DNA of 64,000 bases from Minisyncoccia bacterium (GTDB taxonomy: Bacteria > Patescibacteriota > Minisyncoccia > Phycocordibacterales > PALSA-1337), in the NCBI GenBank assembly GCA_044234345.1, contig JBIIIW010000001.1:1766-65765 (forward strand), read 5' to 3'. The notes under the pieces were generated by a model, which searched no databases, was not told the DNA's origin, and saw only the letters and a program-made list of their open reading frames with translations. Made by a program: the position numbers and the translations under genes. Below, piece after piece: positions 45,002 to 56,599 of the stretch; the stretch's first letter is position 1; each line of letters begins with the position of its first letter.

Positions 45002-48000
45002 TTAGACTACAATATTGATGATTTTGTTCTTAATAATTATTACCTTTTTAATCTCCTTTCCTTCTGTCCATTTCTTCACTTCATCCATATTCATAGCTAT
45101 GTTTTTGACATTCTCATCGCTATCATCCATCACTGTTTTTAGTATTCCTCTAGTCTTCCCATTTATCTGTACTGATATGGTCGCAGTACTTGATACAAGC
45201 ATACCTGGGTCATATTTAGGCCAATAACTGGCATGTACTGAACCCTTGTTCTTTAGCTTCGCCCATAACTCTTCAGTTACATGAGGAGCGAATGGTGCTA
45301 CCAGAGATATAACTACTTCGTAATCACTTTTTGTTATAGAGCTTTCTTTCTCAAATTGATTCAGAAGAATCATGATTGAACTTATCGCTGTATTGAACCT
45401 CATTTCCTCAATATCCTCACCTACCTTCTTTATCGTCTTATGCACCATCACTTGTGTCTCCTCACTAACCTTCGCATCTATACTTACCTTCTCTTGTAGC
45501 TTCCATATTCTTTCTATAAATCTTCTTGATCCAGCTATTGTATTTGTGTCCCATGCTATCGCTTGATCGAATGGACCCATAAACATTTCATGAACTCTTA
45601 GTGTATCTGCTCCAACTGTATTTACTATGCTATCTGGATTAATTACATTTCCCTTTGACTTCGACATCTTCTCTCCTCCTTCTGCTAATATTAGTCCATG
45701 TGATGTTCTCTTCTTGTATGGTTCTTTGGTCGGTACTAGTCCTAGATCGTACAGGAATTTGTGCCAGAAACGAGAGTATAGCAAGTGTAGAGTGGTATGC
45801 TCCATCCCACCGTTGTACCAGTCTACTGGAGTCCAGTATTCTAGATTCTCTTTTGATGCAAACATCTTTTTGTTACCTGGATCTGCATATCGAAGGTAGT
45901 ACCAACTAGATCCTGCCCAGTTTGGCATTGTGTCTGTCTCTCTTTTGGCTTTACAATCAAAATTAAAGTATCTGTGGATATCATCAAAACTTCTTAAGAT
46001 TTGTCTTTCTGGTAGTACTTCATTTAACTTATCAAATCCATTAAAGCCCCAAGAACAACCAATAATTTTTTCTCTATCAAGCAAATTTTCCAACTCAAAC
46101 ACATCTGCCTTAGTGTCAGTGAAGTAATGTATTTGCTTAACACCTACTCCCCAATCTTTGCAGACTCTCTCAATCTTGTCTTCTTTTGATTTCCCATCTT
46201 CGAATGATAGGACGTGTGTAAATTTAATTTTAGATTTTTTAAGTGTGTTCTTCACATACATACCTGATCCAGAAGAAACCACAGCACATTTTATGTTTTT
46301 ATACTTTTTAACTTCATTAATGAAATCCTCGAAAAGGTTGATCTCGTGTCTTATCATTTGTTCGCCAAAACTTCTGGACCATCTTACGTCCCTCTCTATT
46401 TCCTCAGTTGCTTGTACGGAATCTCTAGTGTGATGAGGTTTTTTACCAAAATACTCTTGCAGTTTAGAGATTGTTTCGTTCTTAGATTTATCCTCATCCA
46501 TTGCAAACCTTGCCTCTACTGTTGCATTCCATGTATCTCCTAGAACTCCATCGAAATCAAAGATAAAATATTTAATATCATTCTTCTCGGCTATACATTT
46601 TGGACACTTAGTATTTACCCATTTCTCTATAGAAGCGAGTGGACTCTCTCCAGTCTGACTTGGTTTGTAATTATCTATCTTAGGTAGTAACAGAGGTAAC
46701 TCCTTTTCAGGTAATGGCACTATTCCACACTTCTCACAGTGAACTACAGGTATTGGCTCTCCCCAATATCTTTGTCTTGAGAATATCCAGTCTCTTAGTT
46801 TAAACTTTGTTACCCATTTACCTCCTACGAATTCTGTAATTTCCTCCTTAACCTCTTCTGAGTTCCTGTTATTAAACCTATCAGAATTGATTAGTAGTCC
46901 AGATTCAGTTACTGCATGGTTATCATTCTGTAGTCTGTATAGCCATATATCTAATTCTCCACATTGCATTGTATCCTTACGTATATCCTTAAGTGGAAGC
47001 CATATTGGTTCATGCTTCTCATTCTCTTCAGTAGTTACACTATCTTTCTCTTCATTCTCTAATTCAAAGCATGCCACTTGGAAGTATGCAACTCTATTTT
47101 CATCTTTATGTGCAGCAAAGAATTCACTCTTCACTGTGCCTCCCAGAGTGTTAATATATTTTAAGTTCTTGTATCCTGTTTCCTCTAGTATCTCTCGTCT
47201 TGCTGCTGTCTCTACACTCTCATCTCCCTCTATTCCTCCAACGATGAATGTAGTCCAAGGTTGCTTCTTCCACTTCAGGCATAGTATTTTTCCAGTCTTT
47301 GGATCTCTTACAATTGCTTGTATTGCTCTTCTCTCTACTATCTTCTTCCCATCTCTGTGTGGATTAGTTAGATCGATTCTTACTGGCATAACGACATCTC
47401 GTATCTCAAGGCTATACTTTCTTGCAAAGTCGTAATCTCTTGTATCGTGTGCAGGAACTGCCATAACTGCACCAGTTCCATAGTCATTGAGTACATAGTC
47501 TGCTACCCAAACAGATATCTCTTCGTTATTAGCTGGATTAATTGCCTTTATACCCTTAATCTCTACTCCTGTCTTAACTGTCTTTGCATCTGTTCTCTCA
47601 ATATCTGTCTTCTCCTGTACTTCCTTAATGTATTTTGCAATCTCTATCGTATTCTCTGCATTTTGCATGAATTTAGATACCAGTGGGTGTTCTGGAGCAA
47701 GTACTACATATGTAACACCAAACATTGTATCTGGTCTTGTTGTATATACTTTTATCTTCTCCTCACTCGCCTTTATACTAAATTCAATTTCTGCACCTTC
47801 ACTTTTCCCTATCCAATTCCTCTGTTGTATCTTTATCTTCTCCAGGAAGTCTGTCTCATCTAGATCTTTGTCTAGTCTTTCTGCATATTTAGTTATTGCC
47901 AGCATCCATTGCTCCTTCTCCTTCTGCTCTACTTTTGTACCACATCTCTCACAACATCCGTCTATCACTTCTTCATTAGCTAATCCAATTAGATCCTTAG

Positions 48001-48478
48001 GACACCAGTTAATGGTTAGCTTCTTCTTGTAAGCTAATCCTTTCTTTAGAAACTGTAGGAATATCCATTGTGTCCATTTGTAGTACTTTGGATCTGTTGT
48101 ATCTATCTCTCTAGACCAGTCGAAAGAGAAACCTAATGCTTTTAATTGTCTTCTGAAGTTATCTGAGTTTGTCTTACTCACTATACTTGGCTGTATACCA
48201 GTCTTAATTGCATAGTTTTCTGTAGGTAGACCAAATGCATCCCATCCTATTGGGTAAAGTACATTGTATCCTTCTCTACGTCTCTTACGTGCAATGATAT
48301 CCATTGCTGTGTTACTTCGTATATGTCCTACGTGTAGTCCATCACCTGATGGGAATGGAAACTCTATTAATGCAAAGAATTTCTTCTTGTCCTTATCCTC
48401 CTTAACCTTGTTCGGCTTCTTCGACTCCCATACCTTCTGCCACTTCTTTTCTATTTTTATATGATCGTAGGGCTCCAT
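45002..48478 (-). CDS. leuS: leucyl-tRNA synthetase with inserted NUDIX and HAD-like domains and no canonical CP1 editing domain
   Basis: HVGH, [69 protein letters not shown]. Extra segments: NUDIX box [23 protein letters not shown] (about 46981..47401) and a HAD segment [10 protein letters not shown]...VVSSGSG...FTDTKAD (about 45946..46573). Only about 75 aa lie between TRPDT and GTGAVM, where CP1 normally sits. Confidence 0.9.
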   Translation of the reverse strand: [1158 protein letters not shown]

Positions 48479-48730
48479 GATTCAATCATAATACAATATT
48501 TTTGGGTAAAGTAAAAGCCTGCCGGAATGTGGCAGGCTCTGATGTGGTTCATCTTGGAAATATCCCATGTGCCACTACGGCATACCAGAGGAGTATTAGC
48601 AGGACGACTGTTCTGGGACCAGAGAGTTTGTCTAGTATGGAGGTCATAGCTGGCGAATATACTAGCATTGTTTGGGGGTTAGGGGAAGGGATTAAATTCT
48701 ATACTCGATAGTACTACTATCTTTAACTAC

Positions 48731-48759
48731 TTGACAGAATTGATGATAGGTGCTATGAT
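48731..48759 (+). promoter_or_regulatory. near-consensus sigma-70 promoter TTGACA-N17-(TGc)TATGAT
   Basis: TTGACA at 48731..48736, a 17-nt spacer, and an extended -10 TGCTATGAT at 48751..48759. Confidence 0.5.
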
Positions 48760-48766
48760 TAAAAAG

Positions 48767-48874
48767 TTCAGATTAAGGTCAAAGGTCCGGATACCATTGT
48801 CTGAACATGTCCCGTCAGAAAGGCAGGATATAACCAAATTCTCGACCAGGCGCGTAGGCAACTACGCGCTTTTT
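48767..48874 (+). ncRNA. candidate ~108-nt small RNA of unknown function (SRP RNA-like fragments noted)
   Basis: Bounded by the promoter above and by terminator gcgcgtag-GCAA-ctacgcgc (48850..48869) plus ttttt. No plus-strand CDS follows (ychF is convergent). Contains GGUCAAAGGUCCGGA and GUCAGAAAGGCAGG, loosely resembling SRP RNA domain IV (GGUCAGGUCCGGAAGGAAGCAG). Confidence 0.35.
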
Positions 48875-48879
48875 CCTAC

Positions 48880-49977
48880 CTAAATTCTAAACTCCATCAC
48901 ATCCCCATCCTTCACTATATACTCCTTACCCTCTGTTCTAAGCAGTCCCTTCTCTCTTGCATTAGCAAATGATCCAGATTCAAGTAGTTTGTCCCACTCT
49001 ATAACCTCAGCTCGGATAAATTTCTCTTCGAAATCTCCATGAATAGCTGTGCCAGCTTTAGGTGCTGTCCATCCGCGCCCTATAGTCCAAGCACGAGTCT
49101 CCTTCTCTCCAGTTGTGAAGTATGTAATTAGGTTAAGAAGCTCATATCCTTTCTTGATAAGATCATCAATACCATCATCCTTAGCTCCTAGTCCTTCTCT
49201 AAGTTCCTTCTTCTCCTTGTCATCTATATCCTTCAATTCATGCTCTATACCAGCATCAACTATTACCCACTTTGCATTGTTATCATTAAAAAACTTAATT
49301 AGAGCTTGATATCTCTCATCATTCATTTCATCAAGATTCTTTCCTCCTGCCTTCTTGTTAAGTATGTACATGAATGGCTTAGAAGTAAGTAGATGTAGTG
49401 ACTTAATGAATGGTTTCTCGAATTCATCTGCTACTACTGTAGATGCTAGTTTACCTGCTTCAAGTGCAGTCTTTATCTTCTCTACTAATCCATTCTCTAG
49501 TATTGCTTCCTTTTTGTTTGCTTTTACCTCTCTGTTTAGATTTGCTAATCTCTTAGTTACAGTTTGTAGATCAGCAAGTATTAATTCTAGGTTTATAACC
49601 TCAATATCTTTTAAAGGATTAATCTTTCCATCAACGTGTATGATGTTATCATCCTCGAATATACGAACCACTTCAGCTATAGCGTCAGTCTCTCTAATGT
49701 TTGTAAGGAATTGGTTACCCAGCCCTTCTCCATCTGATGCACCCTTAACTAGTCCTGCAATATCTACGAATTCAACCACAGCAGGTACAATCTTCTGTGT
49801 CTTAGAGAACTCTGAGAGTTTGTACAGTCTTTCGTCTGGTACAGCCACAACTCCTACTGATGGATCTATTGTTGCAAATGGATAGTTAGCGACTAACACA
49901 CTCTTTTTTGTTAGAGCATTGAATAGGGTGGATTTACCCACGTTTGGTAGACCTACGATTCCGATTGATAGTGACAT
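48880..49977 (-). CDS. ychF: ribosome-binding ATPase YchF (Obg family)
   Basis: MSLSIGIVGLPNVGKSTLFNALT (G1) and a C-terminal TGS domain. Start trimmed to MSLS. Confidence 0.9.
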   Translation of the reverse strand: MSLSIGIVGLPNVGKSTLFNALTKKSVLVANYPFATIDPSVGVVAVPDERLYKLSEFSKTQKIVPAVVEFVDIAGLVKGASDGEGLGNQFLTNIRETDAIAEVVRIFEDDNIIHVDGKINPLKDIEVINLELILADLQTVTKRLANLNREVKANKKEAILENGLVEKIKTALEAGKLASTVVADEFEKPFIKSLHLLTSKPFMYILNKKAGGKNLDEMNDERYQALIKFFNDNNAKWVIVDAGIEHELKDIDDKEKKELREGLGAKDDGIDDLIKKGYELLNLITYFTTGEKETRAWTIGRGWTAPKAGTAIHGDFEEKFIRAEVIEWDKLLESGSFANAREKGLLRTEGKEYIVKDGDVMEFRI

Positions 49978-50427
49978 GGCATGAGCATACCATATTTTCA
50001 CTTAAAAAGTCATTATGGTATCATATTCCACCAGATGAAGACTCTACAATACTACGTGCTTGTCTCAGCTATGCTGGGCATACACATTTTGCTCATACCC
50101 CTAGCGTTTCTGTTTATCTGCTCATTAATCGTAATGGCAATAGTTGATTACAAATTCGAATAGATCCTCCATAACCCAATCATTTTGCATCACTAGACTT
50201 ATCATCTAACAATCAGCCCCGTCGTGTTCACGACGGGGCTTTGATTATTTACGTCTCTTTGGACGTTGACGGCGTCTCCTGCAACCTAGATTTTTGAGCG
50301 AGTCTTCTATCGCCCTCATTCTCTGGCTACAAAAAGTAGCACGCTGAATTAAGAGTTGTCCAATTAGGGGTAGTGTGTTTGCACTCATATCCTCAATAAC
50401 TCTACACCTAAAAGTATTTATCGTAAA

Positions 50428-56526: not shown

Positions 56527-56599
56527 TGGACTCGAGGAGATTCGAACTCCTGACCTTTCGCTTGCAAAGCGATTGCTCTACCAACTGAGCTACGAGCCC
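56527..56599 (-). tRNA. tRNA-Ala (anticodon UGC)
   Basis: Minus strand reads GGGCTCGTAGCTCAGTTGGTAGAGCAATCGCTTTGCAAGCGAAAGGTCAGGAGTTCGAATCTCCTCGAGTCCA. It folds as a cloverleaf with a G3:U70 pair, a TTCGAAT T-loop, anticodon TGC, and no encoded CCA. Confidence 0.9.

Follow-up and report, generated by a model that had tools for sequence, protein, structure and literature searches.

What is the short plus-strand unit that sits in the 401-nt gap between ychF and leuS in a 64,000-nt stretch of DNA from a Minisyncoccia bacterium (contig JBIIIW010000001.1; the whole stretch is called the window below), and does it belong to this place in the genome? An earlier note, made from the sequence alone, had described it as an orphan small transcription unit and a candidate small RNA (sRNA) gene. 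At the level of sequence this description holds, and the same promoter module recurs in relatives; what the note did not contain is that the unit lies in a 188-bp cassette. The entire promoter-RNA-terminator unit is an indel, absent from a sister genome (locus L169; other loci are likewise referred to by L numbers), and its border belongs to a family of borders found downstream of ychF in other Patescibacteria. We consider it probable that the unit is an accessory small-RNA gene, carried on a mini-cassette that is gained or lost by recombination at the ychF end.

The unit is self-contained and reads on the plus strand. Its promoter, TTGACA-17-TGcTATGAT, which the earlier note had singled out as near-perfect, scored 11/12 plus the TG extension in a consensus promoter scan; only 11 sites on both strands of the window match it in quality, and a sigma-70 family factor is encoded within the window. 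The GNRA (GCAA) terminator with its run of five T residues was confirmed as well: the hairpin AGGCGCGUAG-GCAA-CUACGCGCUU (48848-48871, followed by a U tract to 48874) starts about 90 nt past the -10 box and has a folding energy of -16.9 kcal/mol (z = -4.6), a stability that 0 of 200 shuffled sequences reached. Read on the minus strand, the same hairpin is without a U tract. Both marks of an independent sigma-70 unit are therefore present in these signals, namely hexamers at a spacing of 16-18 nt and a G+C-rich hairpin followed by a U tract. Between promoter and terminator, the list of open reading frames (ORFs) and their translations holds no credible plus-strand coding sequence, in agreement with the note: a 50-codon frame (48731-48883) starts inside the -35 hexamer and crosses the terminator, and the sole ATG-initiated ORF of the unit has 8 codons (MSRQKGRI) and lacks a Shine-Dalgarno sequence. 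The predicted RNA folds into a stem, GUUCAGA/UCUGAAC (48766-48806), a second hairpin (48807-48831), a single-stranded linker of 16 nt (48832-48847) and the terminator, with z = -4.7 for the fold of the whole unit. A perfect 7-1-7 palindrome, GATAGTAcTACTATC, located 10-24 nt upstream of the -35 box, is a possible operator.

Comparison with L169 shows how sharply this unit is delimited. The YchF proteins of L169 and the window differ at 1 of 365 residues; in nucleotide sequence, identity is 93.8% for ychF and 95.9% for the part that extends from the spacer into leuS. What L169 lacks amounts to exactly 188 nt, leaving a clean gap in the alignment. A 9-bp direct repeat, TAAATTCTA, marks both ends of the insert; it consists of the last codons of ychF. 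In the alignment the empty site of L169 reads ...GGAGTT/TAGAATTTAA/TCCCTTCCCC. Its ychF end can be written ...GGAGTT TAGAATTTA A TCCCTTCCCC, while the window has ...GGAGTT TAGAATTTA G GTAGGAAAAAGCGCG ... CGAGTA TAGAATTTA A TCCCTTCCCC. A repeat search recovered the two borders as a 37-nt direct repeat in two copies, 70% identical and 188 nt apart (48693-48729 versus 48881-48917), and found no terminal inverted repeats at the cassette borders. One copy is the functional ychF end, which reads VKDGDVMEFRI followed by a stop; the other, directly upstream of the -35 box, repeats the final 12-16 codons of ychF in degenerate form and reads VKDSSTIEYRI followed by a stop, and the -35 box itself occupies former ychF codon positions. 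This relic differs from the real end at 10 of 30 nt and keeps 5 of 10 residues. Since the flanks of the two genomes are 94-100% identical, the relic is too diverged to have decayed in place after the window and L169 split, and must either travel with the cassette or be old. Direct repeats of the target sequence at both ends of the insert and an empty site in a relative, by which an integrative element is recognised, are both found here.

Identity between the window and L169 is a mosaic: 85-88% over a small ORF that lies between the cassette and leuS, 99-100% over some 700 nt across the leuS start, then 89-99%. The near-identical block (47809-48509, containing the leuS promoter and 5' end, in surroundings of 85-97%) is, as read from the alignment, a signature of recent homologous exchange, which would appear to be frequent at this locus. 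Directly upstream of ychF synteny breaks, with genes for glycoside hydrolase family 130 (GH130) and phosphomannomutase (PMM) in L169 and for G6PD in the window.

The second line of evidence is the border family. When 100 loci that hold a genuine ychF end were searched in six frames, with fuzzy matching, for the C-terminal decapeptide of YchF, eight of them (the window, L003, L010, L091, L093, L094, L112 and L168) had extra in-frame copies of this end downstream of ychF; L166 is a ninth case, and all nine are Patescibacteria. The eight loci other than the window have one to five copies each (five in L010), and in five of these loci a promoter beside the copy is kept. The closest parallel to the window is L166, with a leuS 71% identical and of the same NUDIX plus HAD architecture: it has an identical TTGACA-17-TGcTATGAT opposite the leuS strand, with a relic behind the promoter and a terminator that abuts a ychF-like end. 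Homologous promoters occupy the equivalent place in L166, L003, L010 and L091, and the combination of promoter and relic is also seen in L168. L003 and L010 contain several units in tandem, with a copy between one unit and the next. Each unit consists of an A-rich stretch plus hairpin, serving the opposite strand as terminator, a cargo of 90-400 nt, and a promoter of the form TTGACA-16/17-TGnTAnnnT; L003 and L010 share the -35 box CTACTTGACAAATTCT exactly. The conserved border measures about 95 nt. It runs from the -10 and -35 boxes through some 48 nt resembling ychF to a stop codon and GYAARAAAAA, and it occurs singly or in arrays downstream of ychF, flanking unrelated cargo. A profile hidden Markov model built from seven borders, with that of the window left out, matched the window at 48758..48692 with E = 6.5e-7, the top match in the 128 kb searched; the real ychF end of the window came behind the relic border, with E = 0.003.

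Substitutions in the relics bear on their history. Over 11 pairs of real and relic ends, 26, 15 and 57 differences fall on codon positions 1, 2 and 3, respectively, and for the relic of L003 and one of those of L010 all differences from the real end are at third positions. This bias implies that much of the divergence between real and relic ends arose while the sequences were coding. The relics also share states that are missing from the adjacent real ends, namely a first base G, which gives Glu in place of Lys, and GGT as the Gly codon. Such patterns would fit copies of the ychF end that travel with the cassettes. Furthermore, in the window, L168 and L093 the end that adjoins the cassette has TAG as its stop codon, with an A-rich stretch starting with G (GYAAR) behind it, while the displaced ychF end has TAA, like the empty site of L169, which suggests that the cassette adjoining ychF is the newest. 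Together with the relic patterns, stop codon usage would fit an exchange of the chromosome with a cassette that has its own ychF-like arm, by recombination in the last ~10 nt of ychF; it is no proof of a site-specific enzyme.

Other ychF loci gave less. Downstream of ychF, the loci with the closest YchF relatives (L081-L083, L161 and L162) have either other content or a contig end, with no synteny. The contigs of L161, L162 and L084, one of them 120 kb long, stop about 100 nt or less past the ychF stop, and at the tips of L161 (3599-3621) and L162 (3599-3615) the relic-type GAAGATGGTAGTG is present in inverted orientation; such ends fit population heterogeneity or repeats at this spot. Viral contigs yielded three chance matches in coding sequence to the border motif and none to two sRNA motifs.

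The cargo enclosed by these borders is varied. Unrelated small RNAs and a tRNA-like gene are among it, as are a membrane peptide of 57 residues and an ORF of 148 residues with a motif like the NUDIX box (recognised by eye only). The tRNA-like cargo (L010, 2470-2552, minus strand) is 83 nt long with a long variable arm, is assigned by ARAGORN to Ile with anticodon AAT, scores 42.9 bits against the Rfam tRNA model, and has the shared promoter and terminator; from this we infer that the module serves small RNA genes. Besides this tRNA, no Rfam family was found in the cargo of related loci (L166 and L003 searched with an E-value cut-off, 14 loci at the gathering threshold). With promoter and terminator kept in several genomes whose synonymous sites are saturated, and with the module driving a tRNA-like gene, the unit in the window reads as an RNA gene, from which a noncoding RNA of about 108 nt is predicted to be made.

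Several observations weigh against this interpretation. Full-length borders were found only at ychF loci, and there is no other copy of the cassette in the 64-kb window, nor away from ychF in 169 genome and metagenome loci. A Pfam scan of 14 of the window proteins encoded near leuS and ychF (42.1-57.5 kb) found no recombinase family. The comparison comprises nine cassette-bearing loci, including the window, and one empty site, that of L169; for this pair, insertion in the lineage of the window and deletion between the repeats in L169 account equally well for the difference. The sister genome lives without the unit, and any function of the unit is dispensable. The body of the RNA taken alone is modestly structured (z = -2.3). 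Homology to the window RNA is detectable in a single cargo, that of L166 (nhmmer E = 0.19, ~58% identity), whose own fold is not significant (z = -1.3), and the two-sequence consensus is weak, with no usable covariation; the covariation analysis proposed in the earlier note was thus confined to this one homologue. Searching with the 401-nt spacer by blastn and nhmmer against 80 genome leuS loci and 80 metagenome ychF loci returned no match; L166 alone came to light, among contigs chosen individually afterwards. A duplex scan against 71 gene starts of the window produced no outstanding trans target and nothing better than shuffled sequences; two short blast complementarities of the sRNA were discarded, as they lie on the wrong strand of coding genes. 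A hammerhead-like string in the L166 cargo, CUGAAUGAG...CGAAAC, was likewise rejected, having no support in Rfam.

Table 1. Features of the ychF-leuS gap and its two flanking genes, in coordinates of the window.
Feature	Position	Strand	Details
Cassette	48702-48880	+	179 bp (188 bp including one copy of the 9-bp repeat); absent from L169
Relic of last ychF codons	48693-48729	-	9-bp core 48693-48701; relic stop TAA 48694-48692
Perfect 7-1-7 palindrome GATAGTAcTACTATC	48707-48721		Inside relic
Sigma-70-type promoter	48731-48759	+	-35 TTGACA 48731-48736; 17-nt spacer; TG 48751-48752; -10 TATGAT 48754-48759
Predicted small RNA, ~108 nt	48766-48874	+	From folding; putative transcript
Intrinsic terminator	48848-48874	+	10-bp stem, GCAA loop, U5; ends 6 nt short of ychF stop codon
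Functional ychF 3' end (one copy of 37-nt direct repeat)	48881-48917	-	9-bp core TAAATTCTA 48881-48889
ychF, 365 aa	48880-49977	-	Start ATG 49977; stop TAG 48882-48880; Pfam MMR_HSR1 and YchF-GTPase_C
39-codon hydrophobic ORF (MLVYSPAMTSILDKLSGPRTVVLLILLWYAVVAHGIFPR)	48549-48668	-	Context, outside cassette; between cassette and leuS promoter
Minus-strand intrinsic terminator	48506-48540	-	Hairpin 48514-48540, -17.2 kcal/mol, z = -6.4
leuS promoter	48485-48515	-	TTTACT-16-TATTAT, overlapping TATGAT
leuS, 1158 aa	45002-48478	-	NUDIX and HAD domains inserted (Pfam)

Coordinates are collected in Table 1. The two flanking genes had been taken for convergent in the earlier note, whereas both lie in tandem on the minus strand; it is the small unit that is convergent with ychF and divergent from leuS. 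The YchF protein, with the N-terminus MSLSIGIVGL, is 100% identical to P0001, labelled 'GTP-binding protein YchF' by its source; exact-sequence look-ups of the YchF and LeuRS of the window returned no record, and the closest relatives of both YchF and LeuRS are Patescibacteria of the Paceibacteria/Parcubacteria type. The minus-strand terminator that the note had reported upstream of leuS is real, and L169 has the same stem with an altered loop. The hint of a leuS leader did not survive: the hairpin is followed by the leuS promoter, whose -10 box ends 6-9 nt before the ATG at 48478, and the order terminator, -10 box, ATG is common to the leuS genes of relatives, with unrelated sequence upstream (in L163, L164, L165 and L167, TATGATACTCACTACTTATG comes immediately past the terminator). 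The hairpin therefore ends the unit upstream of it, that of ychF and the small ORF, and is not an attenuator. With no Shine-Dalgarno sequence between promoter and start codon, the leuS mRNA looks leaderless. The 39-codon ORF remains open in L169, with changes at 11 of its 39 residues and an identity of 83% in nucleotides where the flanks reach 94-100%; the small membrane ORFs that relatives have here are different ones. No convincing promoter for the small ORF alone was seen by eye in L169, and the ORF is therefore probably co-transcribed with ychF.

A few side observations concern the same region. The ychF mRNA is probably leaderless too, with TGgTATGCT just before the ATG at 49977 (motif back-translated from the protein; region 49975-50001). 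A consensus terminator scan returned three weak sites (48014-48039, 48291-48307 and 48649-48666) and missed both strong terminators, we think through a G-U/A-U extension of the stem that uses up the T tract. The inserts of LeuRS, NUDIX at residues 383-501 and HAD at residues 635-793, lie past the editing domain; about 110 of the 120 best LeuRS matches (909-1722 aa) carry NUDIX, with or without HAD or alpha/beta-hydrolase inserts, about ten (766-981 aa) are without NUDIX, and we found no description of the NUDIX and HAD inserts in the literature searched. In the predicted sRNA, the linker segment TAACCAAATTCT (48831-48842) repeats the core around the ychF stop codon a third time, in degenerate form (compare 48877-48888); it could pair with AGAAUUUAGGU of the ychF mRNA over 10 bp with one bulge, possibly by chance.

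The unit might carry no function at all and be a scar, left when the 3' end of ychF was duplicated locally or recombined illegitimately, with transcription signals that were never selected. Its absence from L169 without visible compensation would agree with this, as would cargo sequences that are not conserved between cassettes, weak or absent covariation and the badly decayed relic of the window. We nevertheless regard a scar as unlikely: the -35 box, the 16-17 nt spacing and the TG-extended -10 box stand at 10-11/12 in at least five units from four other genomes in which synonymous sites are saturated, a strong hairpin with its U tract is kept in each unit, and one unit of the same layout carries the tRNA-like gene. 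A very different proposal is that the RNA is a divergent signal recognition particle (SRP, 4.5S) RNA or another housekeeping RNA, such as 6S RNA, a fragment of RNase P or a tRNA-like RNA, that Rfam models miss. The earlier note had drawn attention to an echo of SRP domain IV, and indeed the size is near that of 4.5S, GGUCAAAGGUCCGGA loosely resembles that domain and unit b of L003 contains GUCAGGUUCCUGGAAGGAUGGA. The resemblance led nowhere. Neither the window unit nor L166 or L003 gave an SRP, 6S, RNase P or tRNA match in cmscan, even with hits admitted up to E = 10, and the best hit in 48380-48980, a region to which Rfam assigns no SRP, 6S or cis-element family, is a ylbH leader with E = 0.98 among nothing credible; at the gathering threshold, the whole window holds only a tRNA-Ala (56527-56599). 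ARAGORN found no tRNA or tmRNA at the unit, so that 6S, tRNA, tmRNA and RNase P identities were all dropped for want of a match. The predicted fold has neither a GNRA-capped helix 8 nor the conserved loops, the cargo at this site differs between genomes, and loss of a sole SRP gene, as L169 would imply, is not tolerable, even if a second ffs copy elsewhere is possible. An SRP or other housekeeping identity may practically be dismissed: the unit is of no known RNA family and is not a housekeeping RNA.

That the gap instead holds a minus-strand leader of leuS, a T-box or another attenuator, with incidental signals on the plus strand, is suggested by its length of 401 nt upstream of an aminoacyl-tRNA synthetase gene and by a strong minus-strand terminator about 35 nt before the leuS ATG. 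As the note had already said, there is no T-box here, and neither the gathering threshold nor a search at E up to 10 brings up one or any other leader in Rfam. Given also that the promoter lies downstream of the hairpin and almost at the ATG, that relatives keep this order below unrelated sequence, and that L169 retains terminator and promoter without the cassette, we find a leader highly improbable. The small hydrophobic ORF beside a strongly promoted RNA on the opposite strand, at a strain-variable spot, recalls a type I toxin-antitoxin pair in which the ORF (48668-48549, minus strand) would be the toxin and the sRNA its antitoxin; but the two do not overlap, L169 keeps the ORF without the sRNA, the ORFs of relatives lie on the ychF strand without an antisense promoter, and the start of the ORF ranks 6th of 71 in the duplex scan, in which even the best score does not exceed those of shuffles. 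Such a pair is very unlikely. The unit could also encode a micro-peptide, either the 8-codon MSRQKGRI or a TTG-initiated frame of 28 codons, and a 36-codon ORF in the L166 cargo does begin with MSR as well. There is little to recommend this otherwise, with no Shine-Dalgarno sequence, ATG codons of the window and L166 that do not align, a longer frame that runs through the terminator, and no comparable ORF in the cargoes of L003 and L010; we give it hardly any credence. Two classes of mobile unit were considered and rejected: a miniature inverted-repeat transposable element would share the 9-bp flanking repeat, but the cassette has no terminal inverted repeats and no copy elsewhere in the window, and an integron cassette is contradicted by the missing border inverted repeat (attC), by the absence of an integrase among the 14 scanned proteins near the locus and by cassettes that have their own promoter.

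We therefore return to the accessory small-RNA gene on a mini-cassette as the explanation we favour, and outline how it might work. The cassette would enter or leave by recombination within the last ~10 nt of ychF. This recombination might be site-specific or rely on short homology, and the cassette would spread in the population as its flanks are exchanged homologously. The housekeeping sigma factor would transcribe the noncoding RNA of about 108 nt, with perfect complementarity to whatever ychF transcript continues past the U-less hairpin toward the small ORF and leuS. By antisense pairing in cis and by interference between convergent transcripts, the unit could then uncouple ychF from the genes downstream, the small ORF in particular. 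A cis effect is the one we favour, since a read-through ychF transcript is complementary and the small ORF is probably co-transcribed; as a prediction from sequence, and provided that the RNA is made, an effect on ychF read-through is conceivable rather than expected. Still more generally, and only tentatively, some Patescibacteria may possess an undescribed cassette system anchored at the ychF stop codon, with units of 0.15-0.5 kb, a conserved border (promoter, ychF-like recombination arm and terminator U tract), variable cargo (small RNAs, tRNA-like genes and micro-proteins) and serial insertion by a site-specific recombinase encoded in trans into integron-like arrays of small genes that are transcribed independently, the sRNA of the window being one such cargo.

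To our knowledge, almost nothing is known of regulatory RNAs in Patescibacteria or of how gene content changes in their tiny genomes. The locus offers a concrete case, a small-RNA gene that one genome has and its sister cleanly lacks, at a site that related genomes reuse for varied cargo with a common promoter module. If the cassette reading is true, the border profile becomes a searchable signature for accessory small RNAs and micro-genes in uncultivated bacteria, and it points to a recombination system that acts on the last codons of a protein gene and leaves that gene intact. If it is false, there is still a well-delimited orphan sRNA candidate from which the SRP and leader readings have been removed.

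How does the unit compare with known systems? In the literature searched we found no earlier case of attachment at the 3' end of ychF and no description of Patescibacteria sRNAs of this cassette kind; a prophage site of pneumococcus lies upstream of ychF. As far as that search goes, orphan sRNA genes and 3'-end integration are both already known, whereas the combination suggested here, a mini promoter cassette with a copy of the target codons, arrays and RNA cargo, was not found described. Small SRP RNA (RF00169/RF01854) is similar in length and in a loose resemblance through GGUC...GGUCCGGA, but the unit gives no covariance match at E up to 10, is dispensable and is not conserved at the locus. 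Integron arrays have in common with it short heterogeneous cargo, a conserved border in between and one fixed chromosomal anchor; unlike integrons, these units come without an attC-type imperfect palindrome and with no intI among the 14 scanned proteins, have their own promoters and terminators, and take their border from the 3' end of a protein-coding gene.

The two closest likenesses are with orphan bacterial sRNA genes and with integrative elements. Like the former, including those acquired horizontally on islands, the unit is about 100 nt long, has a strong promoter of its own and an intrinsic terminator, lacks an ORF and varies between strains; unlike them, it sits in a 179-bp cassette that carries a copy of the 3' end of the neighbouring gene, and it comes with no identified family, chaperone context or target. 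Among integrative elements, some target the 3' end of a conserved gene and leave behind direct repeats or tandem arrays; islands at tRNA and tmRNA genes are examples, as is SCCmec at the 3' end of rlmH. The cassette differs from these in that its units measure 0.15-0.5 kb, no recombinase was seen among the 14 proteins scanned nearby, the promoter is its own and conserved, and the cargo is often a small RNA. It resembles them in that the repeat consists of the last bases of the target, the frame and stop codon are restored, a relative has the empty site, and serially displaced ends, as in L010, line up behind the gene.

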